From assembly GCA_963711105.1 (NCBI GenBank), contig CAVQCV010000005.1, positions 1,025,092 through 1,089,091 of the forward strand: 64,000 nucleotides of DNA, in the 5' to 3' direction. The first letter of the stretch is position 1. Each line of letters starts with the position of its first letter. Positions 26,478 to 58,637 of this stretch are shown here, in pieces. This DNA is from an uncultured Chloroflexia bacterium. Lineage in GTDB: Bacteria > Chloroflexota > Limnocylindria > Limnocylindrales > CSP1-4. The notes beneath the pieces were generated by a model that made no database searches, was not told the DNA's origin, and worked only from the letters and a program-made list of their open reading frames with translations. The position numbers and the translations under genes were made by a program.

Positions 26478-27047
26478 CCGGGGCCGGCGGCGCCACGCTT
26501 TGGCGAGGGGCGGCGGCCACGCTTTGGCGAGGGGCGGCGGCCACGCTTTGGCGAGGGGCGGCGCCACGCTTTGGCGAGGGGCGGCGCCACGCTTTGGCGA
26601 GGGGCGGCGCCACGCTTTGGCGAGGGGCGGCGCCACGCTTTGGCGAGGGGCGGCGCCACGCTTTGGCGAGGGGCGGCGCCACGCTTTGGCGAGGGGCGGC
26701 GCCACGCTTTGGCGAGGGGCGGCGCCACGCTTTGGCGAGGGGCGGCGCCACGCTTTGGCGAGGGGCGGCGCCACGCTTTGGCGAGGGGCGGCGCCACGCT
26801 TTGGCGAGGGGCGGCGGCCACGCTTTGGCGAGGGGCGGCGCCACGCTTTGGCGAGGGGCGGCGCCACGCTTTGGCGAGGGGCGGCGCCACGCTTTGGCGA
26901 GGGGCGGCGCCACGCTTTGGCGAGGGGCGGCGGCCACGCTTTGGCGAGGGGCGGCGCCACGCTTTGGCGAGGGGCGGCGCCACGCTTTGGCGAGGGGCGG
27001 CGGCCACGCTTTGGCGAGGGGCGGCGGCCACGCTTTGGCGAGGGGCG
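26478..27047. repeat. Tandem repeat array, about 24 copies of a 23/24-bp unit (CACGCTTTGGCGAGGGGCGGCG[G]C)
   Basis: Counted directly from sequence. Head-to-tail copies with only one variable position (one or two G). No unique spacers. Open in several frames only because the unit lacks stop codons. Confidence 0.9.
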
Positions 27048-27112
27048 GCCCGCCCACTCGAAACCAACTCTCGGCGTCCGAGCTGACTTGCTCAACGTCA
27101 ACCGTGGCGACC

Positions 27113-27925
27113 CTAACCAGGCCCCGGGAGATCGGTGGCACCCCCATCCCGGCGAGATGGGCTTCCTGAGGCGTCGCCTGAGCGTGAGCTGGGCCGATCC
27201 AGGTCATGTCGGGTGGCTCTGACTCTCAATGCGCCCCCTGAACGTTGCCCAGCGTTACCGGGGTTGACATCGGACAGGAACCACAGTCCCCGGATGTCGC
27301 CCCGAGGAGCGCGGATCCATTTGCGCACCTCCAGCGATCCGGCTGGGTACGCGGCACGTACGACGGGACCGAATTCCTCGACGGTGTGTCTCGCCTGGCT
27401 CTCTCCGGGCATCGCCAGCACGGTCCCGACCAGAAGCGGCTGCCATCCAAGCTCACGAGCCAGCCGGGGCGCCAGCCTGCGCTTTCGATCGAGTGTCGAC
27501 AGCGTGTCCTGCAGATCTAAGATGACCGGCTTGGCCTCCACCACCAGCAGAGCGCGAGTTGCGGCGTGCCAGCCCATCGCGTCGAGCGCGCCGTTCTCGC
27601 CGAAGATCGCAAATGTCAGTTCAGGGCGTACTTCCCAGCTCGCGGCCGTGAGCCTCTGAACAATCGCCCTGACGAGGGCCGCGTGCCTGGCGTCGAGCAG
27701 CCTCGCAATCTCCCCGCCGCGCCATCGCGGGCTGAACGGAACAGAAACCCCGAGAGCCGCGCCGACGTGCCTGATCGAACGCAGCGACATCTGTTCCAGG
27801 TGGCCGCTCTCGATCATCGAGACCATCGCCCGGCTGACTCCCGCCGCAGCCGCCACATCGGCCTGACGCAAGCGGCGCCGAAGGCGCACGGCGCGCATGA
27901 CGGCACCGACCCGGACATCGTCCAT
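27113..27925 (-). CDS. XRE-family HTH transcriptional regulator
   Basis: N-terminal HTH (LRQADVAAAAGVSRAMVSMIESG). Stop lies just downstream of the tandem-repeat array. Confidence 0.65.
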   Translation of the reverse strand: MDDVRVGAVMRAVRLRRRLRQADVAAAAGVSRAMVSMIESGHLEQMSLRSIRHVGAALGVSVPFSPRWRGGEIARLLDARHAALVRAIVQRLTAASWEVRPELTFAIFGENGALDAMGWHAATRALLVVEAKPVILDLQDTLSTLDRKRRLAPRLARELGWQPLLVGTVLAMPGESQARHTVEEFGPVVRAAYPAGSLEVRKWIRAPRGDIRGLWFLSDVNPGNAGQRSGGALRVRATRHDLDRPSSRSGDASGSPSRRDGGATDLPGPG

Positions 27926-27990
27926 GGCCCGAGCATAGGCCGCCAGGATCTACGCAGGCTTATCGGACTCCGAGCGGCATGGGCCGGACG

Positions 27991-29109
27991 TCAGTCTCGG
28001 CGGTAGACGACCCGCCCCTGGGCGTCGATCGCGGGCTGCGGCCTGGACGGAACGACCGCGCCGCCACTCCCCGCGCCCGTTCCCGCGCCACTCCCCGCCA
28101 GCCGGGCGGCACGCAGCCCCTCCGCGTCCGGGACCTGGTCGCGGGCGTGGTAGCTCGAACGGACCAGCGGCCCCGATTCCACGTGCTTGAAGCCCAGGGC
28201 GAGCGCCTCCTCGCGCATCTCGGTGAATTCGTCGGGGTGGTAGTAGCGCTCGACGGCGAGATGCTCCGCCGAGGGCCGCAGGTACTGGCCGAGGGTCAGG
28301 ATGTCGCAGTCCACAGCGCGCAGGTCCACAAAAGCTCGGTGCAGCTCGGCCCGGGTCTCGCCCAAACCGACCATGATCGACGACTTCGTGTGAACCGCTG
28401 CCGGCCGCCCGTCCACCCCTGCTCCCAGCTCCTTGAAGTAGCGCTTGGCCCGGGCCAGCACGTCGAGCGACCGATCGTAGCGCGCTCGCTTCCGGACCGG
28501 CTTCTGCAGCCGTTCGACCGTTTCGACGTTGTGGTTGAGGATGTCCGGCCCGGCCGCCATGACCGCCCGCAGCGGCGCTTCGTCGCCGTTGAAGTCCGGT
28601 ATCAGGACCTCGACGCCCATGCCCGGGCAGGCCGCCCGCAGCCGCCGGATCGTGTCGGCGAACACGCTCGCTCCGCCGTCCGCCAGATCGTCGCGGGCGA
28701 CGCTCGTGACCACGACATGTTCGAGCCCCAGCCCGCTGATCGCCTCGGCCACGCGGCGAGGCTCGTCCAGGTCGTGGATGGTTGGTTTCCCCGTCTTAAC
28801 AGCGCAGAACCCGCACGCTCTTGTGCAGGTATCGCCGAGGATCATGACCGTGGCGGTGCGCATGTCCCAGCACTCGCCCATGTTCGGGCAGTGGGCCTCT
28901 TCGCAGACCGTGTGCAGAGCCAGACCGTGGAGCCGCCGTCGCAGCTCCTGGTACGTCTCGCCCGAGGGGATCCGGGCCTTGATCCATTCGGGGTGTCGCC
29001 GCAACGCGGTCGATCCGTCCACGGCGGCCGCGTCGAACCCTCCTCCGCCCATGGCGATGGTAGGCGGCAGAAGTCGGCCGGACGGCTGGAGTTCGGGCGT
29101 GTCGGACAT
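27991..29109 (-). CDS. lipA: Lipoyl synthase
   Basis: Radical-SAM Cys motifs CPNMGECW and CTRACGFC. Confidence 0.9.
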   Translation of the reverse strand: MSDTPELQPSGRLLPPTIAMGGGGFDAAAVDGSTALRRHPEWIKARIPSGETYQELRRRLHGLALHTVCEEAHCPNMGECWDMRTATVMILGDTCTRACGFCAVKTGKPTIHDLDEPRRVAEAISGLGLEHVVVTSVARDDLADGGASVFADTIRRLRAACPGMGVEVLIPDFNGDEAPLRAVMAAGPDILNHNVETVERLQKPVRKRARYDRSLDVLARAKRYFKELGAGVDGRPAAVHTKSSIMVGLGETRAELHRAFVDLRAVDCDILTLGQYLRPSAEHLAVERYYHPDEFTEMREEALALGFKHVESGPLVRSSYHARDQVPDAEGLRAARLAGSGAGTGAGSGGAVVPSRPQPAIDAQGRVVYRRD

Positions 29110-29130
29110 GGGAAGTCTCGAGTTCTGGGT

Positions 29131-30552
29131 CTAGTAGATCGGTGTGTCGGGGCCCATCGATTCGAGCCGGCAGATTACGTCGCGGACGAACCGCCCGACC
29201 TGTGCCCCATCCGTCGCCCGATGGTCGTAGCCGGCGACGAGGTTCATCATCGAGCGGACGGCGATGACGTCTCCTTCGGGCGTCTCGCGCACGACGGGCC
29301 GCTTGACGACGGCTTCGGTGGTCAGGATCACGACCTCCGGCGGGTTGATGATCGGCACGGTCAGGATTGATCCGAACCAGCCGGTGTTGTCGACGGTGAA
29401 GGTCCCGCCCTGGAGGTCCTCGAGGCGCAGCTTGTTCGCCCGGGCTCGGCCGGCCAGGTCCTGGATGGCCCGGTTCAGGCCGTTGATCGAGAGCTGGTCG
29501 GCGTCGTGGATGACGGGCACGATCAACCCGTTATCAACCGCGATGGCGATGCCGATGTTGACGCGGCGCTTTCGCAGCAGACCGCCTTCGGTGTAGTGGG
29601 CGTTGAGGTCCGGGTGCTCGTGGAGCGACTCGACGACGGCCTTCACAATGAACGGCAAGAAGCTCAGGCTCACGCCTTCGCGCGCCTTGTACGAGCCCCC
29701 AACGGAGGCTCGAACGTTGACGACAGTGGTCATGTCGGCTTCGAACGTGCTGTGGGCGACGGGGATCGTCGAGGCACGGGTCATCTGGGCGGCGATGCCG
29801 CGGCGCATCTGGGTGTGCGGGATCAGGACCTCGTCCTGGCCGGCTTCCCAGGTGACCGCCGGTTGGGACGGCGAAGTCGAAGGGACGGACTGTGCCAGGC
29901 CGGGCGCGTGACTCGGGACTCCGAGCAAGGGTGCCGCCATTTGGGCGCCAGAGACCGCCGCCTGACCGGCGGCCGCGACGGCTCCCCCACCCCGGGCACG
30001 CTCGACGGCGGCGATGACGTCTTCTCGGGTGATACGTCCGGCGTGTCCGCTGCCCACGACCTGTTCCGGCGAGAGTCCATGCTCGCGCAGCATCCGGCGG
30101 ACGGCCGGAGTCATGCGCGCGTCGGCGTCGCCGACGGCGGGGAGTGGCCCGGGGAGTGGCGCCGTCGCCGGGCGAGCCGGCTCGGCCATCACGGGCACGA
30201 GCGGCGCCGCCGTGGCGGGCGCGGCGGGCGTGGCGGGCGCGGGTGGAGTGCCGCCGGCCGAAGCCGCGGGAGCCGCCGCCTTCGCGGCGGCCGTGCCCGC
30301 CCCACGACCCGTGGCCCCTTCCGCCTCCTCGATCTCGGCGATCTCGACGTTGTATGCGACCGTCTGCCCCTCTTCGACCAGGATCGCGCGCAACACGCCC
30401 GCAAACGGAGAGGGAACCTCGGCGTTGACCTTGTCGGTGATGACTTCCAGGAGCGGCTCGTCCTTGGCGACGCTGTCGCCGGGCTTCTTGAGCCACTTCC
30501 CGATCGTGCCTTCAGCCACGCTCTCTCCGAGCTGCGGCATGGTCACCTTTGC
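29131..30552 (-). CDS. dlaT: Dihydrolipoamide acyltransferase, E2 component of a 2-oxoacid dehydrogenase complex
   Basis: GTG start with GGAGG upstream (MAKVTMPQLGESV...). Lipoyl domain (ITDKV), E3-binding domain, catalytic DHRATDG motif. The long upstream ORF extension is discarded. Confidence 0.9.
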   Translation of the reverse strand, partial: AKVTMPQLGESVAEGTIGKWLKKPGDSVAKDEPLLEVITDKVNAEVPSPFAGVLRAILVEEGQTVAYNVEIAEIEEAEGATGRGAGTAAAKAAAPAASAGGTPPAPATPAAPATAAPLVPVMAEPARPATAPLPGPLPAVGDADARMTPAVRRMLREHGLSPEQVVGSGHAGRITREDVIAAVERARGGGAVAAAGQAAVSGAQMAAPLLGVPSHAPGLAQSVPSTSPSQPAVTWEAGQDEVLIPHTQMRRGIAAQMTRASTIPVAHSTFEADMTTVVNVRASVGGSYKAREGVSLSFLPFIVKAVVESLHEHPDLNAHYTEGGLLRKRRVNIGIAIAVDNGLIVPVIHDADQLSINGLNRAIQDLAGRARANKLRLEDLQGGTFTVDNTGWFGSILTVPIINPPEVVILTTEAVVKRPVVRETPEGDVIAVRSMMNLVAGYDHRATDGAQVGRFVRDVICRLESMGPDTPIY

Positions 30553-49277: not shown

Positions 49278-50342
49278 TCAGGGCTTCCACTTGGTGTAGA
49301 GGAGGGGGTTCTTGGCGTCGGCCATGGTCCCGCCCGTCCATGGGTAGTCCGTCCAGACTTCGAAGTGGAGGTGTGCGCCGGACGAAGCCCCGGTGCTGCC
49401 GATCTTGCCGATCTGGTCGCCCGCCTGGACCTTCTGTCCGGCCTTGACCGTGACTGCGGAGAGGTGGTTGTAGGTGGTGTAGAGCGTCCCGCCGTGCGAT
49501 ATCCAGACCACGATGCCGCCCGCCGCGCCGTCCGTGCCGGCTTTCCGGCGGCCCGCGTAGATCACCGTGCCCGCGGCGGCAGCCACGACCGGCGAGCCCC
49601 ACCGAGCGCCGATATCAATCGCGTCGTGCCAGTGGCGGCATGTGCCGAAACGCGGCTCGCCGGTGTACGTGACGCAGCCGTACGTCAGGGTCAGGTTGTG
49701 GCTGCTCGGCACCGGCCAGGCGAGCTTGTTGAGCCAGTCAACCGGCCTCATGGACTTGAGAGCCACCGGCAGCGGCTTGTTCGGAACGCCCGGGAGGAGC
49801 AGCATCGCGCCCTCGGTCACATCCGCCGTGGCCAGGCTGTTCGCGTCCATGATCACCTGCGAGTCGATGCCGTACTTGTCCGCGATGGCCGTGAGCGTGT
49901 CACCCTTGACGGTCTTCATCACCACGCCGTCCACGGGCGGGATCACCAGTGTCCAGCCGATCCTGATCAGGTTGGGGTCCGTGATGATCGTGCTGTTCGA
50001 CCAGAAGACCGTCGCGGTGGACAGCCCGAAATCCTGCGCGATCCGGGTCAAAGTGTCGCCCGGCCGAACCTGGTAGGACGAAAAGACCGAGTTCCCGATC
50101 GGCACAAGCGAGCGCGGCGGGGTGGGCGTGGGTGTCGGATCCGGAGTCGGCGAAGGCGACGGTGTCGCCGTAGGGGCGGGCGTTGGGCTGAACACTGCCG
50201 CCAGGGCGGGATGGACGCCCGCCTGGGCGGAAGCGGTTCGTCCGGCCAGAAGGGCTATCGTCGATACCGAGACCGCGACTATCAGGGCGGCCGCTATCAG
50301 AACGCCGCCTTTGCGCCCGATGGAGCGCGGCCCAACGTGCAT
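49278..50342 (-). CDS. LysM-domain M23 metallopeptidase
   Basis: Signal/TM, PT linker, two LysM repeats (YQVRPGDTLTRIAQ; KTVKGDTLTAIADKYG), M23 motifs HxxxD (HDAIDIG) and HLHFEV. Confidence 0.85.
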   Translation of the reverse strand: MHVGPRSIGRKGGVLIAAALIVAVSVSTIALLAGRTASAQAGVHPALAAVFSPTPAPTATPSPSPTPDPTPTPTPPRSLVPIGNSVFSSYQVRPGDTLTRIAQDFGLSTATVFWSNSTIITDPNLIRIGWTLVIPPVDGVVMKTVKGDTLTAIADKYGIDSQVIMDANSLATADVTEGAMLLLPGVPNKPLPVALKSMRPVDWLNKLAWPVPSSHNLTLTYGCVTYTGEPRFGTCRHWHDAIDIGARWGSPVVAAAAGTVIYAGRRKAGTDGAAGGIVVWISHGGTLYTTYNHLSAVTVKAGQKVQAGDQIGKIGSTGASSGAHLHFEVWTDYPWTGGTMADAKNPLLYTKWKP

Positions 50343-50839
50343 CGAGATGCCGGGCAGCGGCAGACGAGGCAATCGCCGCGCGCGCGGCGAGGACGTGATT
50401 GTGGCCGAGACGTCCTTGGGCAGCGCGGCCGTGGCCCTGGCGACCGACCGCCTGCCGCGGATGTCGCGCCGGGATGCTTCCACCCTGATGGACGTTGTGG
50501 AAGTGTCGATCTCGTCGGCCAGGTGCTCGGCCAGCCAGTCCTCCACGTTGCGTGGGCGCAGCGTGCCGGGTTTGGCCTTGCGGGCCTGCTGAAGGTTGGC
50601 CGTCCGCTTCTCGGACGTTGACCGGTGACTCCACGGGAGGTGGAGTCCCGCTGCGGCCCCCTTCTTCAGGATTGCCAAGTCTTCTACTCCGTGTGGAACG
50701 CCACGGTCCGTGACAATCGACCGCCTCCCCTGGGAGCGGCACCACATCGGCGGCCGACGGGGCGGCCGTAGAGTGAACCGCCTCGTCCCTACCCTACCAG
50801 CACCCGCAAATCACTGCTGACAGGTGGGGCCTGCCGGAG

Positions 50840-51355
50840 CTAGAGCTCGAGCCCGGCGCCCTGGAGGCGCCGCAAGAAGAAGGTGACGTAGCCCCTCAGA
50901 TAGCCCGTCGCAAAGCGCTCCGCAGCGGCCAGGTAGTCGGTCTCGCTTTCGAACTCGTCTGCTCGGAACGGAACCGACCGGATACTGGGAACAGCCGGGC
51001 GTTCGCCGGTTTGCCAGCGCTCCAGCCAGTCAGGAACGAGGTCCGGGTCGGCGTCCATCGTCTTCTGTGCCGTGGCCGCGCCGTCGCTCACGCCGCGCCG
51101 GTAGAAGGGGTCCAGCCTGCGCTCGCGGGCGGCCTTGCGGCCCCGGGTCTTCCGCGGCCACAGCTTGTCCGGCGGATCGAACTGGTAGACCAGCTCGACG
51201 GCGGCCTCAATCTCCTCGATGCCCCCTAAAGCCGCATCCATGCCCCATCTCCCGTCCCGGCTTCCCATCCTCGTCATCGATCGCGCCCGATCTAAGAATG
51301 CCAGCTCGCAAACCACCGCGCCCAATGCAAGCGCGTCTTCCGGGCAGGCAGGCAC
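50840..51355 (-). CDS. Hypothetical protein
   Basis: 171-aa ORF immediately outside the left boundary of the integrative element. Confidence 0.4.
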   Translation of the reverse strand: MPACPEDALALGAVVCELAFLDRARSMTRMGSRDGRWGMDAALGGIEEIEAAVELVYQFDPPDKLWPRKTRGRKAARERRLDPFYRRGVSDGAATAQKTMDADPDLVPDWLERWQTGERPAVPSIRSVPFRADEFESETDYLAAAERFATGYLRGYVTFFLRRLQGAGLEL

Positions 51356-51379: not shown

Positions 51380-51427
51380 TGGCTGGCGCGCTAGGATTCG
51401 AACCTAGAATCCCCTGATCCAGAGTCA
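51380..51427 (-). repeat. Distal att repeat (partial tRNA-Gln 3' half, 48 bp)
   Basis: Identical to 58563-58610. The sequence upstream of it cannot form an acceptor stem, so it is not a tRNA gene. Confidence 0.8.
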
Positions 51428-51544
51428 CCAGGCGGCTACCGACGTGCTACTCAGCGTGGCAGGGCCACCGACAGGGGCTCAGTTAGGGGATCGAGAGCGT
51501 AGACTGACGCCAGCGTCCGACATGACGGGAAGGGGTGAACCGGA

Positions 51545-52045
51545 ATGCGCAAGCTCCTACTGGCCGTTGTCCTGGTAGCCGCTGGGTCCCTATCCGGGTG
51601 TGGGGCGGCCACGGACTCGACGGTGCCCACGAATACGGCGACCTCGGCGGCGTTGACGTTGCCGGCCACGACCCCGGCGCCCGTCGCGGCATCAGCTACG
51701 CCCGCAGCTACTAGCCGGTGCGAGACGCCGAGCCAGACACTCGTGGATGCGATCTCCAGCGGCCTCAAGATCGGTGGCGGCGGCACCATAAGGGGCGCGC
51801 AAGCCGTACGGTCGACTGATTTCGAGAGGGTCTGGTTCGTCTCCGCCGACCTCCAGGGATCGGGGCTGGAGGGCAAGACCGACATCGCCACGTGGGCCAC
51901 AAACGACCTGAACGGCGCCGGAGCGATCTACTCCGTCGATGCCGTTGCGGCCGAGTTCAGCGACTGGGGGAGGCCGCCCAGCATGAGCATGAGCGACGAT
52001 GGGGCCCAAGCCTCCGCTCAGTGCGCCAGAGATAGCGTCAAGTAG
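51545..52045 (+). CDS. Lipoprotein, hypothetical
   Basis: Signal peptide with lipobox (AAGSLSGC). 166 aa. Confidence 0.55.
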   Translation: MRKLLLAVVLVAAGSLSGCGAATDSTVPTNTATSAALTLPATTPAPVAASATPAATSRCETPSQTLVDAISSGLKIGGGGTIRGAQAVRSTDFERVWFVSADLQGSGLEGKTDIATWATNDLNGAGAIYSVDAVAAEFSDWGRPPSMSMSDDGAQASAQCARDSVK

Positions 52046-52232
52046 ACGGGCCAGGGACAGCCGCTCAACCTGCCGAGAGCCACGGCAGGCACCTGCCGGC
52101 GGTCGCCATCTCGCGGGCGTACTCGGGCAGGCAGTCGAAGCACGGCCGATCCTGAGCGTGGCTGGGTCACCGAAAGGGGGCCAGTCAGAGGATGTAGGAG
52201 ACTAGACTTGGAGTCTGACTGGCCGTTCATGT

Positions 52233-52985
52233 ATGGGTGGTCCGCAGATTGGACGGAGGGCGACAACCGTGACCGACAGGGCGGAACACGAGCCGGTTAT
52301 GCCGGTTGTGCCGAAGACTCCCAAATGGGAAGAGTACGCCCGTGAGCGGGTCAGGGTCGGGATCAAGAAATTTTCCAAGCCGCTCGCCGAGTTCCTCGCC
52401 CGAGACGCGAACGAGGGCGACACGCGGCTCCTCGTAACCGACTTCCTGTGCGAAGCCCTGGGCTTCGACAAGTTCTCAGAGCTGGCCACCGAGTATGTGG
52501 TCAAGGGCGAGTTCGCCGACTACGGCGTCCGGATCGACAAACAGCTCGTGGCCTTCATCGAGGTCAAGCGGGTCGCCACCAAGCTCAGCCAGAACCACCT
52601 TCGCCAGGTCGAGATGTACGCGGTCAACGAGGGCATCGAATGGATGATCCTCACCAACGGCGCGCAATGGCAGGCCTACCACCTGACCCCCGGCATGCCT
52701 GTCCAGATCGACCTCGCGCTCGAGGTGGACCTCCTGGGCCCCGACTCACCCGCCAAGAAGGCTGATGCGATCTACCACCTGACCCGCGAAGCCCTGAAGC
52801 GCCGCGTAATTGACGAACTCTGGAAGGCCAAGCGCACTTCGTCGCCGAGGGCCATAGCCCAAATCCTCGCCTCGCCCGCTGTCGCCACGGTCGTCCGCAA
52901 GGAGTTAGGGCGCCAGGGCTACCGGGCCACGGACGCCGAGGCCGCTGCTCTCATCAAGGCGGCGATCCGAGCCGACTGCCAGTAG
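52233..52985 (+). CDS. HSDR_N-like PD-(D/E)xK nuclease-fold protein (standalone type I R-subunit N-terminal domain homolog)
   Basis: Motif order D(TRLLVTDF)...D(YGVRID)...EVK...TNG matches the HSDR_N_2 restriction-endonuclease-like core. Start probably internal (MPVVPKTPKWEEY). Confidence 0.55.
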   Translation: MGGPQIGRRATTVTDRAEHEPVMPVVPKTPKWEEYARERVRVGIKKFSKPLAEFLARDANEGDTRLLVTDFLCEALGFDKFSELATEYVVKGEFADYGVRIDKQLVAFIEVKRVATKLSQNHLRQVEMYAVNEGIEWMILTNGAQWQAYHLTPGMPVQIDLALEVDLLGPDSPAKKADAIYHLTREALKRRVIDELWKAKRTSSPRAIAQILASPAVATVVRKELGRQGYRATDAEAAALIKAAIRADCQ

Positions 52986-52990
52986 AGGAC

Positions 52991-53007
52991 CCCCCCCGGG
53001 GGGGGGC
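52991..53007. terminator. C8G9 homopolymer palindrome, possible bidirectional terminator
   Basis: ccccccccggggggggg lies between convergent genes ending at 52985 (+) and 53042 (-). Confidence 0.45.
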
Positions 53008-53041
53008 GCATGTCGATCTTCTTTCGCGCGTTGGCTTCTTG

Positions 53042-54133
53042 TCAGCGGTAGCGGGCGTCCGGATCGGGGCCGATCGGGTCGGAGTACGGCGCCTCCGGGG
53101 TCGCCATCCCAGCGGCCACGGTCTTGGCCCGAATGGACTCGACCACGAAACGGTTCACCTGGCCGTCGGTCGGATCGCCGACTGCGCGGGCTGCCGCGAT
53201 GGCGGCCCGGCTGGCTCGCGCATGGATGGCGGCCTGCTCGACCCTCCACGATTCGACTTCGGCGTTGACGGCGTCCCGAGCTTCGGCCGCTTCTGCGTGG
53301 CCGTCCCACGTTGCCACGTACGCGGCCTCGAGCCGGTCGACCATCCGTGTGGCTGCGGGGACTCCGTGTTCCTGAGCAGCCATCGCGAAGGCCCGGGCGT
53401 TGACCAGATCGCCGGCCGCTTCGGCGGCTTCGGCCTGCCCGAGCAGGATGTTGGCGGCGGCGGTCGGGCCGCTGACGGTCTTCGCCAGTCGGGCCGCCCG
53501 GAGCTCTATGCCCATGTCGACATTGACTTGTTCTGGCGTCCGGGTGTCGCGGGCGAGGGCCTTCCGGGCGTCGCCGGCGGCCTTCGCGCGCCACGTTTCC
53601 ATCCCGCCAGCGGCCCGAGCTGTTACGTGGTCGAGGGCGTCCAGGAGGCGCTTGCGCTCGCGGGTCTTCCACTCCCGATCGAGGCCGTTGTCTTCGGTGA
53701 GCTTCTCGAGGGCCGCGGTGATCTCGGCGGCCTGCTGTTGCGTTACGTTCCTGATCTTGCGGGCGGTTTCGATCGCGATATCGGGGGGCATGGTCTTCTC
53801 CTGTCGCTTGGCCTCGCGACGCAGGCGCGCCGCTTCGGCGGTTAGGGTGGCCGGGTCGGGTGAACCGGCCAGGCCGAGCTTGTCCATGAGCGTCGCCGTC
53901 GCCGACTCCGTGCCGGGCGTCGGGGCCGCGAGCAGCCCGGCCAGGGCTTCGTATCGGTCCGCCTGCCTTCGCGTCTCGGCGATGCGCTCCGCTGGCTTCA
54001 TCGCGGCCTGTTGGATCGCGGCCTGACGGGCTTCCTCTTGCTCTCGCTGGGCGGCGCGAATGGCGATTTCCTGCCGCTCTTCTCGGGCTCGCGCTTCCGG
54101 CGACATGGCGGCTCGGCGGCTCCAGCTGTTCAT
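53042..54133 (-). CDS. Hypothetical Ala/Arg/Glu-rich protein (363 aa)
   Basis: First gene of a four-gene minus-strand operon with overlapping stop/start codons. Confidence 0.5.
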   Translation of the reverse strand: MNSWSRRAAMSPEARAREERQEIAIRAAQREQEEARQAAIQQAAMKPAERIAETRRQADRYEALAGLLAAPTPGTESATATLMDKLGLAGSPDPATLTAEAARLRREAKRQEKTMPPDIAIETARKIRNVTQQQAAEITAALEKLTEDNGLDREWKTRERKRLLDALDHVTARAAGGMETWRAKAAGDARKALARDTRTPEQVNVDMGIELRAARLAKTVSGPTAAANILLGQAEAAEAAGDLVNARAFAMAAQEHGVPAATRMVDRLEAAYVATWDGHAEAAEARDAVNAEVESWRVEQAAIHARASRAAIAAARAVGDPTDGQVNRFVVESIRAKTVAAGMATPEAPYSDPIGPDPDARYR

Positions 54134-54576
54134 CGCTCGTCACCTGCCTCTGTGGCAGCCTCAGAGGGCCGCTCTACGGGGGGTGCGGGGTCGGAGCGGA
54201 CATTGGCGCCACTCGGGCAATCGGAGCGCCAGGAGGCCGGGTCCCGATAGCCGAGCACTGCGGCCCTGACGTCGGGCGAGAGACGATCGAGAGCGGCGGC
54301 CATCGCGGCCATGCCGGCTTGCGTTTCGGCGTGCTCGGCCAGCTGCCGGCGGATCGCTCCGATGACGGCGGCCTGGGTGGCGTCGGCTGGTTGGCACTCG
54401 GCCAGGAACGCGGCCAGGTCCAGGCTGATGCCGAACGACCGACCGGGCCAGTCGGCGTACAGGGCGGCGCGTACAAGCCATCCGGCGTCAAGGTCGACGG
54501 ATCGGCCGTCCGGGCTCGCGAACGTGGCGGCCGGCCGGGAGGGACCCGCGATCGGGTCGGTTGCGGGGAACCTCAT
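54130..54576 (-). CDS. Hypothetical protein (148 aa)
   Basis: 4-bp overlap with the downstream gene. Good periodicity. Confidence 0.45.
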   Translation of the reverse strand: MRFPATDPIAGPSRPAATFASPDGRSVDLDAGWLVRAALYADWPGRSFGISLDLAAFLAECQPADATQAAVIGAIRRQLAEHAETQAGMAAMAAALDRLSPDVRAAVLGYRDPASWRSDCPSGANVRSDPAPPVERPSEAATEAGDER

Positions 54577-54872
54577 CGCGGCGCCTTCGCTTTCGGGGCG
54601 CGGGCGGCCTTCGCGGCCAGGATGAGCGAGCGCTCGACGTCGCCTCCGTCCGGGTTCGAGTCGGGGTCGCAGCCAGCCAAGAAGTCGATCGCCTCATCGG
54701 ACAGGAGGCCGAGCGACGGCTCTCCGGGGGCGGCCAGGTAGGCGTCCAACGGCACCGTCAACGGGAGCGCCAGGGTTGAGCCGTCGGGCCGGCGGAAGAC
54801 TGCCCGGCCAGCCGATGCGACCGCATCGATGTCCTGCCGCAGCCGGCGGGCGCGGAGCGAGATACGAGACAT
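54573..54872 (-). CDS. Hypothetical protein (99 aa)
   Basis: 4-bp overlaps on both sides. Confidence 0.4.
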   Translation of the reverse strand: MSRISLRARRLRQDIDAVASAGRAVFRRPDGSTLALPLTVPLDAYLAAPGEPSLGLLSDEAIDFLAGCDPDSNPDGGDVERSLILAAKAARAPKAKAPR

Positions 54873-54873
54873 G

Positions 54874-55302
54874 TCAACCTCCTGGGGCTACGCGGGGTCG
54901 GGTGAATACTTCGCCCAGCTCGCCCGACTGGACGGCCGCAACCTGCTCCTCGAGCTCGGCCAGGCGATCGGTGACCACGGCCTCGTCATGTACCTGGACG
55001 ATCGATCGGGCCAGGCTGGCGATCGCATGGCCACGGGCGGGATCGAGTGAGCCGGAGAACGTCTCGGCGAGTGCCTGCTCGAGCGTCGCGGCCACGCCGG
55101 AGAACGGGCCTTGGCGGACGATCCGGTAGGCGCGGGCGAGGTTCGAGCGATGCCGGCCGCCCTTCGCGGAGCCGGTGCGGCGGGCGTCCAGGGCAGCCGG
55201 GTCCTGGGAGTGGGCCAGGCATCCCCCGTCCGGCTGCGTGGCGAAGCTGCCGCAGGGCGAGCCGTCGCGCCGTCGATACCGGCACTGGGGCTGTGGGGTC
55301 AT
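54874..55302 (-). CDS. Hypothetical protein with N-terminal Cys/His cluster (142 aa)
   Basis: CRYRRRDGSPCGSF...GGCLAH motif suggests a zinc-binding protein. Confidence 0.45.
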   Translation of the reverse strand: MTPQPQCRYRRRDGSPCGSFATQPDGGCLAHSQDPAALDARRTGSAKGGRHRSNLARAYRIVRQGPFSGVAATLEQALAETFSGSLDPARGHAIASLARSIVQVHDEAVVTDRLAELEEQVAAVQSGELGEVFTRPRVAPGG

Positions 55303-55549
55303 CGTTCCATCCCCTGACTGGGGGAGTTTCGGGAGGCGTTCGGGCGGGTCGCTGAGCGTGAACGGCGGGCCCCTTGGACCGGCTGATCGTCAATCAGGGG
55401 ATCAGCCCGGCAGACGTCGCAAACCCAGCCGGCGCCGTCTCGGCGATGCCCGAATTGATGGGCGGCGTAGTCGTCGCAGCGGACCGTCTCAGACGGCGCG
55501 GCGCTCACGGGGCCGGCCGGCTCCGCGTCCGGCGGCGTGGACAGGTACA

Positions 55550-55849
55550 TCATCCGACGGCCCTCCGGCGAGGCAGGTCTACGACGTCGGCCGACTCGTG
55601 CGCGTGCGTGGGGGCTGGGGCGGCCTGGGCCGAGCACAGGCGGACAGGGTGGGCGCCTTCGAGCGGGACAGTTTCGTCGATCGTCCCAGGAACGACGGCC
55701 GCAACCGTGCGCCACGTCTCGGCCGCGTCTTCGATCGTGTCGGTGATCGACACCAGGGCGAAGGCCGCTACGTCTCGGCACTCTCCGTCGACCAGGGCGT
55801 GCCACGGCTCGGCCACGGGGCACAGGCTGACGATCCGCTCCGCGCTCAC
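55550..55849 (-). CDS. Hypothetical protein
   Basis: GTG start overlapping the stop of the upstream gene (GTGA). Confidence 0.35.
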   Translation of the reverse strand: MSAERIVSLCPVAEPWHALVDGECRDVAAFALVSITDTIEDAAETWRTVAAVVPGTIDETVPLEGAHPVRLCSAQAAPAPTHAHESADVVDLPRRRAVG

Positions 55850-56685
55850 GACGTGGCAGCCTTTCGCCCGGCGATCTTCGCGGCGCAGCGAAGGCAGTAC
55901 TTGGATCCGTCGCCGGGGTGGTCGGCCGCGTGTCCCACCATGTCGTAGCACCACGGACTCGACCAGGTTGCGGCGCGATCGACTCCGATTCGCGTCGCTG
56001 GGTCCGATCCGGTTGTGCCGTTCTGTTGCGGAAGAATCGGCGCTATCTCCGCTCGATCAACCGGCTCCGACCCTTCCGTCGAAGAAAGCTCGGCTGCGGC
56101 TTGAGAAGAACGGTTGAGTTCTGGATTCTGTCCTACTCGGACGGAGGTACCAACCGGAATCTCAGTCTCAGTAGGAATCTCAGTCTCAGTAGTTGGATCG
56201 ACCGTTGGCTGATTGCCCAACGGTTCGTTGGCTGATTGCCCAACGGTTCGTTGGCTGGTTCGTTGGGATCGCGGCAGGAAATGCCCGGCATCGTCTCGAC
56301 GGGCCGCCCGAGCGGAGGCCTGACCGGCGACCTTCGCGGCCTCGATCCGCTTCGCCCTGGCCTCTTCTTGGGTTGGGATGCGATAGCGGTAGTCCGGCAG
56401 CCGCTCGATTAGGCCGAGCCGGGCCAGCTCATCCGCCAGTTCGTCCGATACCGAGCGGTTGAGATCTGCCGGACTCGGCCAGGCGCGATCCGCAGCCAGC
56501 GTGAGCCGAACCAAGACGGCGAGCTTGCGATCATCCGAGTAGACGCCAGCGAGGGCCGGATCGTCCGCGAGGGCATGGGGCAGTCGGACCCAGGCCTCGC
56601 GGCGCAGGTCAACCGCGCGGCTGCTCATCGTACGGGCCCTGGAGTGGAGGCGGGACCGCCCAGGCCGACGATCCCGCCCGCACAC
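55846..56685 (-). CDS. Putative DNA-binding/replication protein of the element
   Basis: N-terminal winged-helix-like segment, central low-complexity region encoded by DNA-level repeats, C-terminal Cys/His cluster (HPGDGSKYCLRCAAK). The function is a guess. Confidence 0.4.
   Translation of the reverse strand: MCGRDRRPGRSRLHSRARTMSSRAVDLRREAWVRLPHALADDPALAGVYSDDRKLAVLVRLTLAADRAWPSPADLNRSVSDELADELARLGLIERLPDYRYRIPTQEEARAKRIEAAKVAGQASARAARRDDAGHFLPRSQRTSQRTVGQSANEPLGNQPTVDPTTETEIPTETEIPVGTSVRVGQNPELNRSSQAAAELSSTEGSEPVDRAEIAPILPQQNGTTGSDPATRIGVDRAATWSSPWCYDMVGHAADHPGDGSKYCLRCAAKIAGRKAATS
56157..56260. repeat. Direct and inverted repeats (18-bp x2, then 23-bp x2 plus a partial copy containing ccgttgg-N8-ccaacgg)
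   Basis: gaatctcagtctcagtag x2 (56157-56192). cgttggctgattgcccaacggtt x2 plus a partial copy (56204-56260). The 23-bp unit is out of frame between copies, so these repeats are DNA-level. Confidence 0.75.
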
Positions 56686-56953
56686 GGCTGGGAGGATGCT
56701 GATTGCCGGCGACGTCGCGCCTGGCTCGCTCTGAGGCTCAGGGCCGCCATGTGCTGCCGGCGAAGGAAAGCGGCCCGGCGGCTCGCCTCCTCGGGTGTGA
56801 GGCTCTCGCCGCGGGCAGCCGCTTCCTCGATGGCCCGCCGCACGAACCCGGCCAGCTGCCCGGCGAGGGCCGGGGCGACGTTGGTCTTGCCTTGAGCATG
56901 AAGCGCGAACGCGCCGATCCGGGCGCGTGTGGAGCGCTCCGCGGCGGTGAGGC

Positions 56954-57205
56954 TCACCGGAGGACCTCGAGCTCGGCCGGGTCCACTCCGATGGCTTCGA
57001 GCCACGCGGCCTGTCGGCGCGCCGGCATCGGAGAGACGCCGTTCTCGACCGCAGTCACGAAGACCCGGGCGACGCCAAGATGGCCGGCGAGTTGCTCCTG
57101 GCTGAGGCCCGCCATCAGCCGACGCTCCACCAGGAGCCGGAGAGCGGGTGCGCGCTCGCTCAGCGGCAGGCGGGAGGCTGGGAACCTGCGCGTACGAAAG
57201 GCCAC
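56954..57205 (-). CDS. XRE/Cro-like HTH protein (regulator or excisionase candidate)
   Basis: HTH LSQEQLAGHLGVARVFVTAVENG. 83 aa. Upstream of the integrase. Confidence 0.55.
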   Translation of the reverse strand: MAFRTRRFPASRLPLSERAPALRLLVERRLMAGLSQEQLAGHLGVARVFVTAVENGVSPMPARRQAAWLEAIGVDPAELEVLR

Positions 57206-57527
57206 CGGACCACCTCACGTTGAGGTTGTCCCGGTGGCCTCTGACTGCGGCTCGGGTTTCGCTTATCTCGATGGATTGGCCGGCTATCCCGCCCTCACGG
57301 CGTGTATCAAGTCGTGCCGGACCTTCTTGAAGCCTCGGAGTCTTGAACGGGCCTTGTGTGCTTCTCTCGCTGCGAGCGCCTCGTTCTGAGGGCCTGTGCG
57401 CTTCTCTCGCTGTGGAGGGTCCGCTCCGTGCTGACCGCCGATCCATCACGGCGTCCGTACTTACGGTATGGTGCCGTGTAGGCCGGTGTCAAGCCGTCCC
57501 CGTGATCTCGGCTACCTCGGGGCTCCC

Positions 57528-58541
57528 CTACAGCCGGTCGGCCGGACTCAGCCGTCGGTGCGCCTCCCGGGCGCGTTCGTCCGCGGCGCTCGCCCCGTAC
57601 CGGCTCAGCATCGTTCGGGATCTCCAGCCGGCAAGGCGCATCAGGTCGGTTTCGTTCCCACCCGCCGACAGCCACCCCGACGCGAACGAATGGCGCAACA
57701 CGTGGGCGTGGAACCCCTCAACCCCGGCCACGGCGGCCCGGCGCTTGAGGGCCTGGACGATGCCGCGACTCTCGAGCCGACCGCGCCTGCCGAGCCAGAA
57801 CCATTCGCTGCTCGCGTCGCGATGGTGGGCGCGGGCGCGCATGTAGCGATTGAGGGCACGGCCGACGGTGGCGCCGAACGGGAGGGCGCGGCGCGATCCG
57901 CCCTTGCCCACCACCACGGCGACGGCTTGCGTCATGTCGACGTCAGCGGTCGTGAGGTTGGCGACTTCGCTCAACCGGGCACCCGTGTCGAAGTACAACA
58001 GCAACAGGGCGAGGTCCCGGCGATCCTCGAATTCGGTCCCGCCGCATGCCCGGACGAGGGCGGCGATCTGCTCCTGCGTCAGCACGGGCACTGGATCGAC
58101 GGCCACGGCCGGTTGCTTCATGCGCGCCATCGGCGAAAGCGTGATCTCGCCCTCTTCGATCATGTAGGCGAAGAATGGCCGGAGTGAGCGGAAGCGGAGC
58201 GCCACGGTTGCCGGAGAGCGCCCGCGCTCGGTCAGGTCCAGTAGGAACGCCTCGACATGCTCGCGGCGTATCGCGCTCGCCTGAGTCGGCATCCCCCGAT
58301 CGGCCAGGAAGTCGCCCAGCTGCCGCAGGCTGTCCGCGTAGCTCTCGATGGTCCGGGGGCTCTTGTGCTCCGCCCTAAGATGGGTCGTCCAGGGCTCGAC
58401 TTCGGCCCGGACGTCGCCAAAGCGGGTGCCGGTTGTGGTCTGTTCGGTCATTCGGTCCCCTTTGGAATGTGTCCAGTAAGGGGATCGTACCACCGACGTG
58501 CTAACCGTCAACGGCCGGAGGCCACCCAGTAAGGGGCTCAA
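57528..58541 (-). CDS. int: Tyrosine recombinase / phage-type integrase
   Basis: SAM-like N-domain plus catalytic domain with R...HxxR (HVLRHSFAS) and the Tyr region ([13 protein letters not shown]). Start possibly at the internal MTEQTTTG. Confidence 0.9.
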
Positions 58542-58562
58542 TCTGAGCGTGAACCGGGGGGT

Positions 58563-58637
58563 TGGCTGGCGCGCTAGGATTCGAACCTAGAATCCCCTGA
58601 TCCAGAGTCAGGTGCCTTACCGTTAGGCCACGCGCCA
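58563..58637 (-). tRNA. tRNA-Gln (anticodon CTG)
   Basis: Hand-folded 75-nt cloverleaf. U1-A72 acceptor (TGGCGCG/CGCGCCA), anticodon stem CCTGA/TCAGG, loop CTCTGGA, T-arm CTAGG-TTCGAAT-CCTAG, encoded CCA. Confidence 0.85.

Follow-up and report, generated by a model that had tools for sequence, protein, structure and literature searches.

AICEs such as pSAM2, SLP1 and pMEA300 are described in the cited accounts as small elements of high-GC Gram-positive hosts that carry small HTH regulators (PMC2440964, PMC3218068). PICMIs integrate beside fis, and the account cited presents AlpA as a key regulator of their activation (PMC10803314). EPIPs measure 11 kb and carry genes for TerS, adaptor, stopper, major capsid and tape-measure proteins (PMC12822802). 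The locus compared here with these systems lies in a window of 64,000 nucleotides, the whole stretch of DNA that was analysed, from a high-GC host genome (~70% GC). The features that define its boundaries are as follows:

58563-58637, minus strand: intact tRNA-Gln(CTG) (ARAGORN; Rfam tRNA, 68.4 bits)
58563-58610, minus strand: integrase-proximal att repeat, the 3' 48 nt of tRNA-Gln (exact repeat)
51380-51427: distal att repeat, an exact copy and the displaced 3' 48 nt of tRNA-Gln, at the element-chromosome junction far from the integrase

On re-inspection, both a repeat search and a pairwise alignment confirmed the perfect 48-bp tRNA-Gln repeat that the preliminary description had placed around the element. 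The two copies are exact, start 7183 nt apart and span tRNA-Gln positions 28-75 (anticodon stem through 3' end); the length of this exact match makes a chance origin within 64 kb impossible. The classic att layout, with a tyrosine integrase adjoining the intact tRNA-Gln, was likewise recovered (Pfam Phage_integrase, 1.5e-26). The interval 51380-58610 is an intact mobile element of ~7.2 kb, inserted site-specifically in the 3' half of tRNA-Gln.

Recombination and control occupy the end of the element next to the tRNA:

57528-58451, minus strand: tyrosine integrase, 307 aa (Pfam Phage_integrase; phrog_1, 3.3e-48)
57206-57527, minus strand: regulatory spacer between the integrase and HTH genes (sequence inspection)
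56954-57205, minus strand: XRE-type HTH regulator, 83 aa, which opens the operon (HTH_31, 2e-9; HTH_3, 1e-6)
56625-56957, minus strand: gene S, basic, 110 aa (GTGA and ATGA overlaps; homologues)

The integrase reading frame is open to 58541 and also matches SAM-like N-terminal domains in Pfam; translation probably begins at the ATG at 58451, for a protein of 307 aa, compared with 310-312 aa for the integrases of relatives. The Arg (TGARLSE), HxxR (HVLRHSF) and Tyr (LSRYGAS) motifs are present, and the protein is 48-52% identical to the integrases of two metagenomic relatives, L007 and M. A promoter-like site lies at 58511-58484. Inspection of the spacer revealed another, consisting of TTGACA (57492-57487), 18 nt and TACCGT (57468-57463), followed by a leader of ~255 nt in which CAGCGAGAGAAGC occurs twice (57412-57400 and 57372-57360); the leader folds no better than shuffled sequence (z = -0.35). 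The HTH gene is kept in all relatives. S is 80% identical to its counterpart in M (tblastx) and 49% to that in L007, and is confined to elements with a tyrosine integrase, an unrelated 62-64-aa gene taking its position in serine-recombinase elements. S, which co-varies with integrase type, is a candidate recombination directionality factor (excisionase, RDF) for the tyrosine integrase and a better one than the HTH protein; of the earlier label 'XRE/Xis-like', the XRE half stands on the HTH_31 match and the Xis half is not upheld.

The remaining genes of the operon are:

55846-56628, minus strand: core gene F, 260 aa (homologous genes in every relative and P0001)
55550-55849, minus strand: gene E, 99 aa (GTGA overlap with the F stop codon; called on L003)
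55299-55553, minus strand: gene E2, 84 aa, whose zinc-ribbon motif is related to the F C-terminus (ATGA overlaps; called on L003)
54874-55302, minus strand: core gene D, 142 aa, with six helices after an N-terminal CCCH zinc ribbon
54573-54872, minus strand: core gene C, 99 aa (homologues in L004, L005, L007 and M, 40-49% identity)
54130-54576, minus strand: gene B, 148 aa, a C paralogue over a domain of ~80 aa (ATGA overlaps at both ends; aligns with C)
53042-54133, minus strand: core gene A, 363 aa, all-helical, last in the operon

In the order XRE-HTH, S, F, E, E2, D, C, B, A, these genes form one minus-strand operon in which stop codons overlap the next start; every junction is a GTGA or ATGA overlap save one, a 1-nt gap. 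An independent caller reproduced the E-to-A gene calls on L003, a Logan contig of 100% identity. The preliminary description had listed four overlapping small Ala-rich proteins as cargo. Junction inspection and the independent calls extend the overlap run, which is counted as ten genes (nine are named, eight small ones and A), and these proteins are the conserved core of a family rather than its cargo. GC3 is 0.78-0.86 in nine of the ten operon genes; in F it falls to 0.68 (ORF as first called) because of the GC-poor centre of that gene.

D is the most conserved core protein, with homologues 53-71% identical and C7, C17, C28 and H31 invariant; its structure model has a pLDDT of 73, and fold and sequence comparisons gave no informative match. 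A is a large helical protein that folds confidently in prediction, and comparisons of its predicted fold were as uninformative as those for D. B has homologues in M and L009, and C remained without a match in family searches (Pfam, PHROGs). E2 is homologous to L009 g6904, which itself matches F C-termini. The sole direct match of E is L009 g6105 (38% over 60 aa, E 4e-4), and it connects to the E genes of L004 and L005 only transitively, via L009. Apart from the XRE-HTH protein, which matches HTH_31, the core proteins have no match in Pfam, PHROGs, PADLOC, NCBIfam, PDB, IMG/VR or phage and plasmid collections; 34 core proteins of relatives gave 0 matches to PHROGs at E <= 0.001. No membrane segments were found in the core proteins, nor enzymatic or NTPase domains (Pfam; Walker-A pattern search).

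F combines an N-terminal domain, read from its sequence pattern as a winged helix, with a low-complexity linker and a C-terminal zinc ribbon; Pfam and PHROG searches with it returned no match. The N-terminal domain is also found by itself, as a protein next to recombinases in unrelated settings, and may therefore be a generic DNA-binding module. The gene contains one further feature:

56000-56271: candidate origin inside F (iteron-like array, 18-nt repeat, stretch of 50-60% GC)

In phage lambda, the origin lies inside the O gene, where dyad repeats are followed by an A+T-richer stretch in the initiator linker. The iteron-like array of F (56201-56266) comprises CCAACG in four direct copies together with the inverted CGTTGG. 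Tandem repeats of 23 nt x 2.4 (56203-56257) and 18 nt x 2.1 (56156-56192) are present, and three of the four exact copies of CCAACGAAC in the 64-kb window fall within 44 bp. GC content drops to 50-60% at the same central position in every complete F gene examined. At this dip the window element, L007, L004 and L005 each have their own, element-specific tandem repeats, with palindromic cores of CCAACG/CGTTGG, GGGAACG-N2-CGTTCCC, ATGCTCCAAGCA and GTTACGG/CCGTAAC, respectively; in M, the F gene showed no array. As 23 nt is not a multiple of three, the copies in the window element are read in different frames, and the periods of 23, 23 and 10 nt exclude repeats at the protein level. The earlier proposal of a replication or DNA-binding gene with iteron-like repeats is borne out as a candidate, with the repeats in F at 56156-56257, and F is a candidate initiator and DNA-binding protein. 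The repeats may just as well serve as a packaging site, as a transfer locus or as operators; pac sites lie inside the terS genes of P22 and SPP1, and by analogy a pac site could be present here instead of an origin.

Beyond the operon, two genes lie on the opposite strand:

52233-52985, plus strand: stand-alone PD-(D/E)xK nuclease of HSDR_N_2 type, 250 aa (Pfam, 1.5e-6; phrog_17239, 7.7e-53)
51545-52045, plus strand: lipoprotein, 166 aa, with a MRKLLLAVVLVAAGSLSGC lipobox (signal peptide then Cys; GC3 0.81)

Both had been named in the preliminary description, and the Pfam HSDR_N_2 match and the signal peptide with its Cys uphold the two assignments. The D...EVK motif of the nuclease is intact, and PADLOC yields weak partial matches only. 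That the nuclease falls in a PHROG family is a point for a phage link. Its closest DNA relative sits in an accessory region of an Arthrobacter megaplasmid, among HipA, Fic and Ltp-lipoprotein genes. The best hydrophobic stretch of the lipoprotein covers residues 4-22, and neither Pfam nor PHROGs matched it. Both genes are absent from all family relatives compared, and they are best read as exchangeable cargo in a variable slot. A role in carrying defence or addiction genes, as suggested earlier, is plausible for this slot only; PADLOC calls no system.

The core operon recurs in six metagenomic relatives (L004, L005, L007, M, L009/L010 and L011), and the shared core genes, those of the window element included, are 30-70% identical. 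The window element belongs to a rare, uncatalogued family of small integrative elements on high-GC metagenomic contigs; no relatives were found in IMG/VR, 50,697 phage records or 185,579 representative genomes. L007 is bounded by an exact 48-bp tRNA-Arg repeat, 7,613 bp apart. The ends of L005 overlap by 15 nt, which closes a 7,923-bp circle with a 53-aa ORF across the junction and suggests, through this overlap, an episomal form. Measured members span 7.2-7.9 kb; a further one is ~8.3 kb and another is longer than 9 kb. The window element, L007 and M carry a tyrosine recombinase, whereas that of L004, L005 and L009 is a serine recombinase; the gene at the S position switches with the recombinase type, and similarities of A and HTH do not track this split. 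As read from gene content, the family is modular, with an exchangeable recombinase at one end, an exchangeable cargo slot at the other, and a translationally coupled core of XRE-HTH, an integrase-matched small gene, F, (E, E2), D, C, (B) and A. One relative carries a pair that reads as toxin-antitoxin-like from sequence, and others have membrane proteins in variable positions.

Neither conjugation genes nor phage structural genes turned up in the window element in searches of Pfam, PHROGs, PADLOC and NCBIfam, in line with the preliminary description. FtsK, relaxase, capsid, portal and ATPase genes were not found, nor any helicase, primase or polymerase gene; the Walker-A pattern matched only twice in the six frames, in the lipoprotein and in S, and both matches are judged from their context to be chance. 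Terminase and tail-like genes, which the window element itself lacks, are present in relatives. Exactly at the D-C position, L009/L010 carry a TerS-like gene and a split TerL, made up of a terminase ATPase (phrog_7579, 1.2e-42; Terminase_6N, 3.9e-9) and a terminase-nuclease-like gene. The TerS-like reading of the 189-aa protein depends on its gene position and a weak HTH_7 match (E 0.003, below the Pfam cut-off), and hhalign detected no relationship between it and D (probability 0.2%). In L005, M and L011, the gene after A encodes C-terminal repeats with weak similarity to minor-tail and tail-hydrolase proteins of actinophages.

Our preferred, still tentative reading, to which we give slightly less than an even chance, is an intact integrative and replicative element that needs a helper for transfer and is probably a phage satellite, with the nuclease and lipoprotein as cargo. 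The HTH protein would silence the operon at the promoter in the spacer; upon derepression, the integrase, with S as directionality factor, would recombine the 48-bp core and release the element as a circle. F would bind the repeats, direct and inverted, that lie within its gene, open the adjacent GC-poor stretch and bring in the host replisome, in the manner of lambda O at ori-lambda. As the window element has no transfer or virion genes, its spread would require a helper, most likely a tailed phage, and D, C, B and A may form a module that diverts helper packaging or capsid assembly. The nuclease and lipoprotein would be accessory cargo, plausibly for exclusion or defence. Our best guess is that the family spreads by hitch-hiking on phages; no helper phage was identified. 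Counting against this reading are the lack of terminase and tail-like genes in the window element, the 0 PHROG matches of the relatives' core proteins, the absence of relatives from IMG/VR, the phage records and the representative genomes, the uninformative folds of A and D, the undetected relationship of D to the TerS-like protein, the short overlap behind the L005 circle, and the other roles that F and its repeats may have. A satellite gathers the most support among the options raised in the preliminary description, solely from the terminase and tail-repeat genes of relatives.

It is rather unlikely that the element is instead an integrative mobilisable plasmid of actinomycete type, an AICE without Tra that would integrate, excise and replicate as above and whose dsDNA would be transferred by TraB/FtsK from a co-resident conjugative plasmid or AICE, the translocase recognising a cis-acting clt-like repeat, possibly the one inside F. 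Direct and inverted repeats are typical of clt loci, and F has both; the host genome is high in GC, and the window copy is free of phage genes. The ~48-bp att at a tRNA 3' end, an integrase gene adjoining that tRNA, and F as candidate Rep also reproduce the AICE layout (PMC3218068). Two of the three defining modules are missing, however, with no FtsK/SpoIIIE Tra and no RepSA, RepAM or Prim-Pol, so that the earlier label of a minimal AICE-like element does not hold (criteria in PMC3218068). AICE membership was rejected because there is neither an FtsK-type Tra nor a known Rep. None of the proteins has a match in 72,556 plasmids, where the nuclease matched at the DNA level only; relatives have terminase and tail-repeat genes instead of conjugation genes, and D, C, B and A would be left without a role.

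We consider it doubtful that the operon is itself a defence or addiction system on a minimal integrating vehicle, with D, C, B, A and the nuclease directed against incoming phages or plasmids instead of promoting the spread of the element. Small islands at tRNA genes often carry defence genes, and the cargo, the toxin-antitoxin-like pair and membrane proteins of relatives, and the HipA, Fic and Ltp-lipoprotein neighbours of the Arthrobacter homologue would fit. Yet PADLOC reports no system, the nuclease and lipoprotein vary where D-C-B-A is constant, the core proteins have no enzymatic or NTPase domains, and L009 has terminase genes in place of D and C, which suggests packaging and not immunity.

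Very little probability attaches to an autonomous small temperate virus, with A as capsid or nucleoprotein, D, C and B in assembly, and a receptor-binding tail-repeat protein lost in the window element. Similar genome sizes (7.2, 7.6 and 7.9 kb), one circular contig, a conserved block of unassigned proteins ending in the confidently folded helical A, and a receptor-binding-like gene coupled to A in three relatives agree with it. They are opposed by the lack of a known capsid fold, of a packaging or morphogenesis ATPase, of membrane segments in core proteins and of IMG/VR matches, by one member of more than 9 kb, and by the relative that has a terminase without capsid or portal, which implies borrowed capsids. 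Least probable of all is a locus that has lost its mobility, either the remnant of a decayed prophage or island or an ancestral region: no excision was observed and no close relative with an empty site was retrieved, but the two 48-bp copies match perfectly, every gene is intact and coupling is tight, and the same layout recurs at another tRNA with its own perfect repeat (tRNA-Arg, L007), with serine recombinases and as a circle (L005).

Compared with known systems, the family resembles AICEs in 3'-end tRNA integration by a tyrosine or serine recombinase, as the cited accounts describe it, and is likened, from sequence alone, to their excision and replication as a circle (PMC2440964, PMC3218068). 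The window element is smaller (7.2 kb, against 10.9-17.3 kb for the three best-characterised AICEs as given in PMC2440964), has no spd, Nudix or Kor homologues, and its relatives carry phage-type rather than conjugation genes. PICMIs of Vibrionaceae, in the account cited, are likewise very small, with a reduced gene content, few core genes for excision and replication, variable defence-type cargo and no recognised capsid-remodelling genes (PMC10803314). Unlike them, the family occupies a tRNA or serine-recombinase site, bears no sequence relation to PICMI proteins and has a much larger core of 8-10 genes; its helper dependence is putative. By analogy with lambda O and ori-lambda and with iteron plasmids, F has an N-terminal DNA-binding domain and repeats within its own linker region, and the spacing of ~23 bp, about two helical turns, is that of ori-lambda and iteron replicons. 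In contrast to lambda O, it has no similarity to Phage_rep_O or any Rep family and ends in a zinc ribbon, and no P-like helicase loader was recognised in the element. Searches for homologues of the hallmark satellite proteins Sid, Psu, Delta, alpha, AlpA, pri-rep, TerS, capsid, adaptor and tape-measure gave no match. The element shares with classical satellites (P4-like, PICI, cf-PICI, PLE) and the actinobacterial EPIPs, MiniFlayer and MulchRoom an integrase, a repressor-type HTH protein and a putative replication module of its own, and one relative encodes a terminase without a capsid, as a satellite might. Sid and CpmB, all-helical size-determining scaffolds, offer a precedent for a protein like A, and the dependence of satellites on helpers for virions is what we propose, by analogy, for this family.

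The element at positions 51380-58610 of the window very probably represents a new family of integrative elements and is still active or was so recently. It is integrated site-specifically at a tRNA-Gln gene and carries an intact, coupled operon; it belongs to a family in which the core is conserved, the recombinases and cargo are exchangeable, and one relative is circular. The observation stands, and its parts cohere better than the preliminary description, made from the sequence by a single reader, could show. The intact tRNA-Gln(CTG) gene (58563-58637, minus strand) was identified by ARAGORN and by Rfam with 68 bits, and its positions 28-75, which run from the anticodon stem through the 3' end, form the 48 nt at 58563-58610, which recur at 51380-51427, 7,183 bp apart, with identity ending at both borders; on re-inspection the two copies were found without a mismatch. 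Beside the intact tRNA lies a tyrosine recombinase (Phage_integrase, 1.5e-26; phrog_1, 3.3e-48) with two SAM-like N-terminal domains, and its translation shows the catalytic motifs TGARLSE (Arg), HVLRHSF (His-x-x-Arg) and LSRYGAS (Tyr). The likely start of the integrase is the ATG at 58451, giving 307 aa (310-312 aa in the relatives), and a promoter-like TTGACG-16-TACGAT is located between the tRNA and this ATG. The element therefore combines the catalytic motifs, the tRNA 3' repeat at both ends and the integrase adjacent to an intact tRNA that characterize a tRNA-targeting tyrosine-integrase island, and the metagenomic relative L007 displays the corresponding arrangement, with its own repeat, at a tRNA-Arg. 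The tRNA-Gln, the 48-bp repeat and the adjacent tyrosine integrase proposed in the preliminary description were thus borne out at their coordinates by ARAGORN, Rfam, the exact repeat and Pfam. Just outside the element, a 489-aa ORF (49278-50747, minus strand) resembles by eye a LysM/M23-type secreted cell-wall peptidase, and the ORF that separates it from the att repeat (50840-51355) matches no family.

The minus strand forms one operon, for which the gene limits below were set by GC3 and start/stop junctions, and two plus-strand genes converge on its last gene, A.

Genes of the window element downstream of the integrase
57205-56954, minus strand, HTH
56957-56625, minus strand, S
56628-55846, minus strand, F
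55849-55550, minus strand, E
55553-55299, minus strand, E2
55302-54874, minus strand, D
54872-54573, minus strand, C
54576-54130, minus strand, B
54133-53042, minus strand, A
52233-52985, plus strand, stand-alone HSDR_N_2 PD-(D/E)xK nuclease (Pfam, 1.5e-6; phrog_17239, 7.7e-53)
51545-52045, plus strand, lipoprotein

All junctions within the operon are GTGA/ATGA overlaps except D/C, which has a 1-nt gap, and GC3 lies between 0.78 and 0.86 in nine of the ten operon genes, being lower in F because of its GC-poor centre. A gene caller applied to a public Logan assembly predicted E, E2, D, C, B and A identically on a contig matching window positions 53251-55986 at 100% identity. The 322-bp spacer between the integrase and HTH contains a promoter-like TTGACA-N18-TACCGT followed by a leader of ~255 nt, in which, downstream of the promoter-like sequence, two direct CAGCGAGAGAAGC repeats, also read as GCGAGAGAAGC-N-CACA, lie 40 nt apart (57355-57412) and could be operators or RNA target repeats. 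A structured RNA in this leader was rejected, as its fold is no better than that of shuffled sequences (z = -0.35) and Rfam matches the tRNA only. The long leaders upstream of HTH in three relatives with a serine recombinase (L004:1560-1718, L005:2083-2241 and L010:4875-5033) have conserved blocks in common, and in the consensus fold of these three sequences 6 of 32 pairs show compensatory changes, including a helix beside the start codon.

The contexts of the relatives were taken from metagenomes, and their genes were compared by all-against-all BLASTP.

Metagenomic relatives of the window element and their gene order
L007: tRNA-Arg(TCG) with an exact 48-bp repeat at a spacing of 7,613 bp; tyrosine integrase, HTH, S, F, D, C and A, followed by a 90-aa gene and three membrane proteins
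M (contigs L002 and L001, overlap 99.96%): tRNA-Arg, tyrosine integrase, a pair read as RelE-like, HTH, S, F-like, D, C, a 78-aa gene, B, A, a 213-aa gene
L004 and L005: a large serine recombinase replaces the tyrosine integrase and is followed by HTH, a 62-63-aa gene, F, E, D and C
L011: A, then a 202-aa gene

The constant set across these relatives is HTH, F, D, C and A, with the exception of L009, described below, while E, E2 and B are present in some and missing in others; B and C are paralogues over a domain of ~80 aa. L005 goes on to A, and the L004 contig (4,147 bp) stops soon after C. The L005 contig (1-7938) ends with 15 nt in common (TCGGCCGGCAAGGTG); closure yields a 7,923-bp circle with a 53-aa ORF spanning the junction, which indicates that it was assembled as a free circle or a tandem array. 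No second repeat was detected in M within 9.3 kb. Two small overlapping genes between the integrase and HTH of this element (L002:1292-1826), the second RelE/ParE-like by eye, may be a toxin-antitoxin insertion. A small gene between recombinase and HTH also occurs as a tandem duplicate in L007:4220-4653 (73 and 71 aa, 50% identical) and singly in L009:4500-4856 (118 aa), and is missing from the window element. Two contigs of Logan run ERR11571143 (L003 and L006) are respectively 100% identical to the window element and to the L005-type element with a serine recombinase, so two members of the family coexist in one sample.

The genes beyond A are different in each element. The preliminary description had regarded the whole content as uncharacterized cargo, which holds for the nuclease and the lipoprotein, since they occupy this variable slot and occur in no relative, but not for the small operon proteins, which are the core of the family. 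Profile searches of the supposed cargo gave a divided result: the nuclease (HSDR_N_2) and the HTH protein were matched, whereas the small proteins of the operon had no match and no defined defence system was found in the window element by the PADLOC models, whose only matches were weak and single-domain (REase_MTase_IIG, covering part of the nuclease at 2.7e-4, and 'control protein', matched by HTH). The nearest DNA relative of the nuclease, with 72% identity over 462 nt, is in the plasmid NZ_CP104273.1 of Arthrobacter sp. zg-Y1110 (17579-30040), where the homologue forms one portion of a longer HsdR-N-domain protein; the accessory region around it also encodes HipA, Fic and an Ltp-family lipoprotein.

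Small integrative elements that are unable to move alone ('hitchers') are thought to be numerous, and they have been catalogued almost entirely by hallmark genes from a few model systems; to our knowledge, almost none are known from Actinomycetota. The present family would be missed by each hallmark-based tool, with 8-10 core proteins lacking any library match. Pfam, PHROGs, PADLOC and NCBIfam, searched with the operon proteins and with 34 homologues, contain no match to S, F, E, E2, D, C, B or A; in PHROGs, none of these 34 core proteins of the relatives had a match at E <= 0.001. The six-frame translation of the window element revealed no credible P-loop; the Walker-A pattern occurs just twice, once in the lipoprotein and once in S, and both occurrences were judged from their context to be chance. 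In blastn searches with the whole element no phage was matched, and against plasmids the nuclease was the sole matching part; D and S had no tblastn match in phages, nor did D or the L007 homologue of S in plasmids, and among PDB sequences the profiles of A, D and the N-terminal domain of F yielded chance-level matches only. The family is rare: only 12 A-like proteins turned up when 1.84 billion cluster representatives were searched exhaustively with HMMER, five relatives of D were present in 5.8 billion clusters, and no relative appeared in 185,579 GTDB representative genomes scanned with A and with D, or in IMG/VR scanned with D, A and the L009 terminase. Neither these genome scans nor exact look-ups of both flanking proteins retrieved a close relative with an empty tRNA-Gln site.

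The comparison of the relatives points to candidate directionality factors. In the three elements with a tyrosine integrase, S (103-110 aa, basic; 80% identical between M and the window) directly follows HTH, and in the three with a serine recombinase an unrelated gene of 62-64 aa takes this position. The closest relative of the window A is that of the serine-type L005 (50%), and the closest to its HTH is that of the serine-type L004 (48%). These affinities cross the recombinase types, which argues that the recombinase and the gene in the S position travel together, independently of the rest, as would be expected of a recombinase with its directionality factor. On the basis of six elements, two of them close relatives, we infer that S and the 62-64-aa gene are candidate directionality factors of their respective recombinases, and the swap thus offers candidates for both recombinase types.

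F consists of three parts, namely an N-terminal domain, a low-complexity linker and a C-terminal W-C...H...C-x-x-C zinc ribbon. The N-terminal domain, which has no family match, is read from its sequence pattern as a putative winged helix. The centre of each complete F gene has 50-63% GC against ~70% on either side, and in four elements it harbours repeats of common design and element-specific sequence.

Repeats inside F
Window: CCAACG(AAC) x 4 with inverted CGTTGG (23-nt period x 2.4), then 18 nt x 2
L007: GGGAACG-N2-CGTTCCC (23-nt period x 2), then (ACGAAG) x 6
L004: ATGCTCCAAGCA x 3.5, then (ACGGTCT) x 3.6
L005: GTTACGG x 3 with inverted CCGTAAC

F of M, in which the GC dip is shallower (60-63%), revealed no repeat array. 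In the entire 64-kb window CCAACGAAC has four exact copies, three of them within 44 bp. Since none of the periods (23, 23 and 10 nt) is divisible by three, successive copies are read in different frames (in the window as RTVGQSAN and then EPLGNQPT), and the repeats are therefore maintained at the DNA level; their palindromic cores would make sense only as candidate protein-binding sites. The window element, L004, L005 and L007 all possess the architecture of iterons as in lambda O, with tandem repeats and an A+T-richer region inside the candidate initiator gene. In phage lambda, ori-lambda lies within the O gene, where dyad-symmetric iterons followed by an A+T-rich stretch occupy the linker of the initiator, and this is the closest known arrangement to that of the family. 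It is slightly more likely than not that a replication origin lies inside F, which would make F with its internal repeats a candidate minimal replicon for high-GC bacteria. Searches of Pfam, PHROGs, NCBIfam and PDB sequences revealed no homology between F and any established Rep family. The profile of its N-terminal domain also matches stand-alone proteins of 129-135 aa (contigs L012-L017), which adjoin tyrosine integrases or precede large serine recombinases, a ParB_N protein being present in one case; the domain is apparently a DNA-binding module widespread among integrative elements, and by itself is no proof of initiator function. The site inside F could instead be a pac or clt locus.

A connection to phages emerges from the element L009/L010, which keeps HTH, a 64-aa gene, F, E, E2, B and A, and carries three genes exactly in the D-C position, between E2 and the B-type gene (L009:7376-9433).

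Genes in the D-C position of L009/L010
Gene 1: 189 aa, weak HTH_7 match (E 0.003, below the Pfam cut-off), read with its position as TerS-like
Gene 2: terminase ATPase, 271-277 aa (phrog_7579, 1.2e-42; Terminase_6N, 3.9e-9)
Gene 3: terminase-nuclease-like, 227 aa (phrog_27743, 1.5e-17; phrog_2, 7e-7)

The terminase large subunit is thus split into separate ATPase and nuclease-like genes, and the ATPase has its nearest counterparts in the TerL proteins of Thermus and Meiothermus phages (35-41% identical). No capsid, portal or tail gene was found in this element, which must therefore borrow procapsids. In addition, the ~200-aa gene after A in L005, M and L011 encodes C-terminal V-x-V-R-R-G-G-x-W-V repeats with weak matches to a minor-tail PHROG (0.004), phrog_20173 (1e-6) and the C-terminus of a glycoside hydrolase from a Streptomyces-phage virion region (5e-4). 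Given the terminase and tail-repeat genes of the relatives, a helper phage is the most likely vehicle, with D, C, B and A as the likeliest hijack module; phage-dependent transfer of the family is held tentatively, as a possibility somewhat short of even. D as a diverged TerS was rejected, as hhalign against the TerS-like protein of L009 was negative. The model of A (pLDDT 87, twelve helices) and that of D (pLDDT 73, a CCCH zinc ribbon and six helices) match generic helical proteins only.

The link of the family to phages is indirect and comes from the relatives only, and we infer the functional steps as follows. The HTH protein would repress the operon promoter, and derepression would lead to the joint production of S and F; Int and S would then excise the circle, F would fire the internal origin with host enzymes, and D, C, B and A would divert the packaging or capsid assembly of a helper phage. 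The nuclease and the lipoprotein may serve as exclusion or defence cargo, to the benefit of the host or of the element. The family has the anatomy of a complete module for integration, excision and replication, with exchangeable recombinases and cargo and, in one relative, a terminase in place of two core genes.

Alternatively, the family could represent a previously unknown, very small temperate virus of high-GC bacteria (~7-8 kb, circular) that needs no helper, in which D-C-B-A would form or assemble the particle, the all-helical A would be the capsid or nucleoprotein, and the tail-repeat protein of the relatives would bind the host; we consider this highly improbable. As the preliminary description had stated, the window element has no recognizable phage structural gene, and PHROGs gave no structural or lysis match of a tailed prophage in its 7.2 kb. 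A filamentous phage and a membrane-vesicle-type virus were dismissed, given the lack of a Zot-type ATPase and of transmembrane proteins in the core, respectively.

The element works like an integrative satellite or mobilizable episome that stands outside all named families. For P4-like elements, PICIs, cf-PICIs and PLEs, no hallmark gene was found; AlpA, Sid, Psu, Delta, alpha-primase, pri-rep, TerS and capsid were all without a match in PHROGs, Pfam and NCBIfam. AICEs are defined by an FtsK/SpoIIIE Tra (PF01580) and a Rep of the RepSA, RepAM (PF12307) or Prim-Pol (PF09250) type (PMC3218068), and they resemble the window element in the tRNA att site, the recombinase types and the logic of integration and replication. 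The suggestion of a minimal AICE-like element did not hold, however: the tRNA-att integrase is present, but two of the three modules, Tra and Rep, are absent, with no PF01580 match at E <= 0.1 in any ORF of the element and no Pfam or NCBIfam match to the three Rep types in F or any other protein. PICMIs integrate next to fis and encode core proteins for excision and replication together with an AlpA activator (PMC10803314); the minimalist idea is common to both, whereas the integration site (fis versus tRNA-Gln) and the core genes differ, the integrase being alike in kind only and the window element giving no AlpA or primase match. EPIPs, the only satellites reported from Mycobacteriaceae, are 11 kb long and have genes for TerS, the adaptor, the stopper, the capsid and the tape measure (PMC12822802). 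The family described here, invisible to hallmark-based detection, combines a possible new packaging-hijack module, a candidate minimal replicon and candidate directionality factors. If the helper-phage reading is true, D, C, B and A would represent a new way to divert phage packaging, and the family would rank among the smallest satellite families known, smaller than the actinobacterial satellites described so far.
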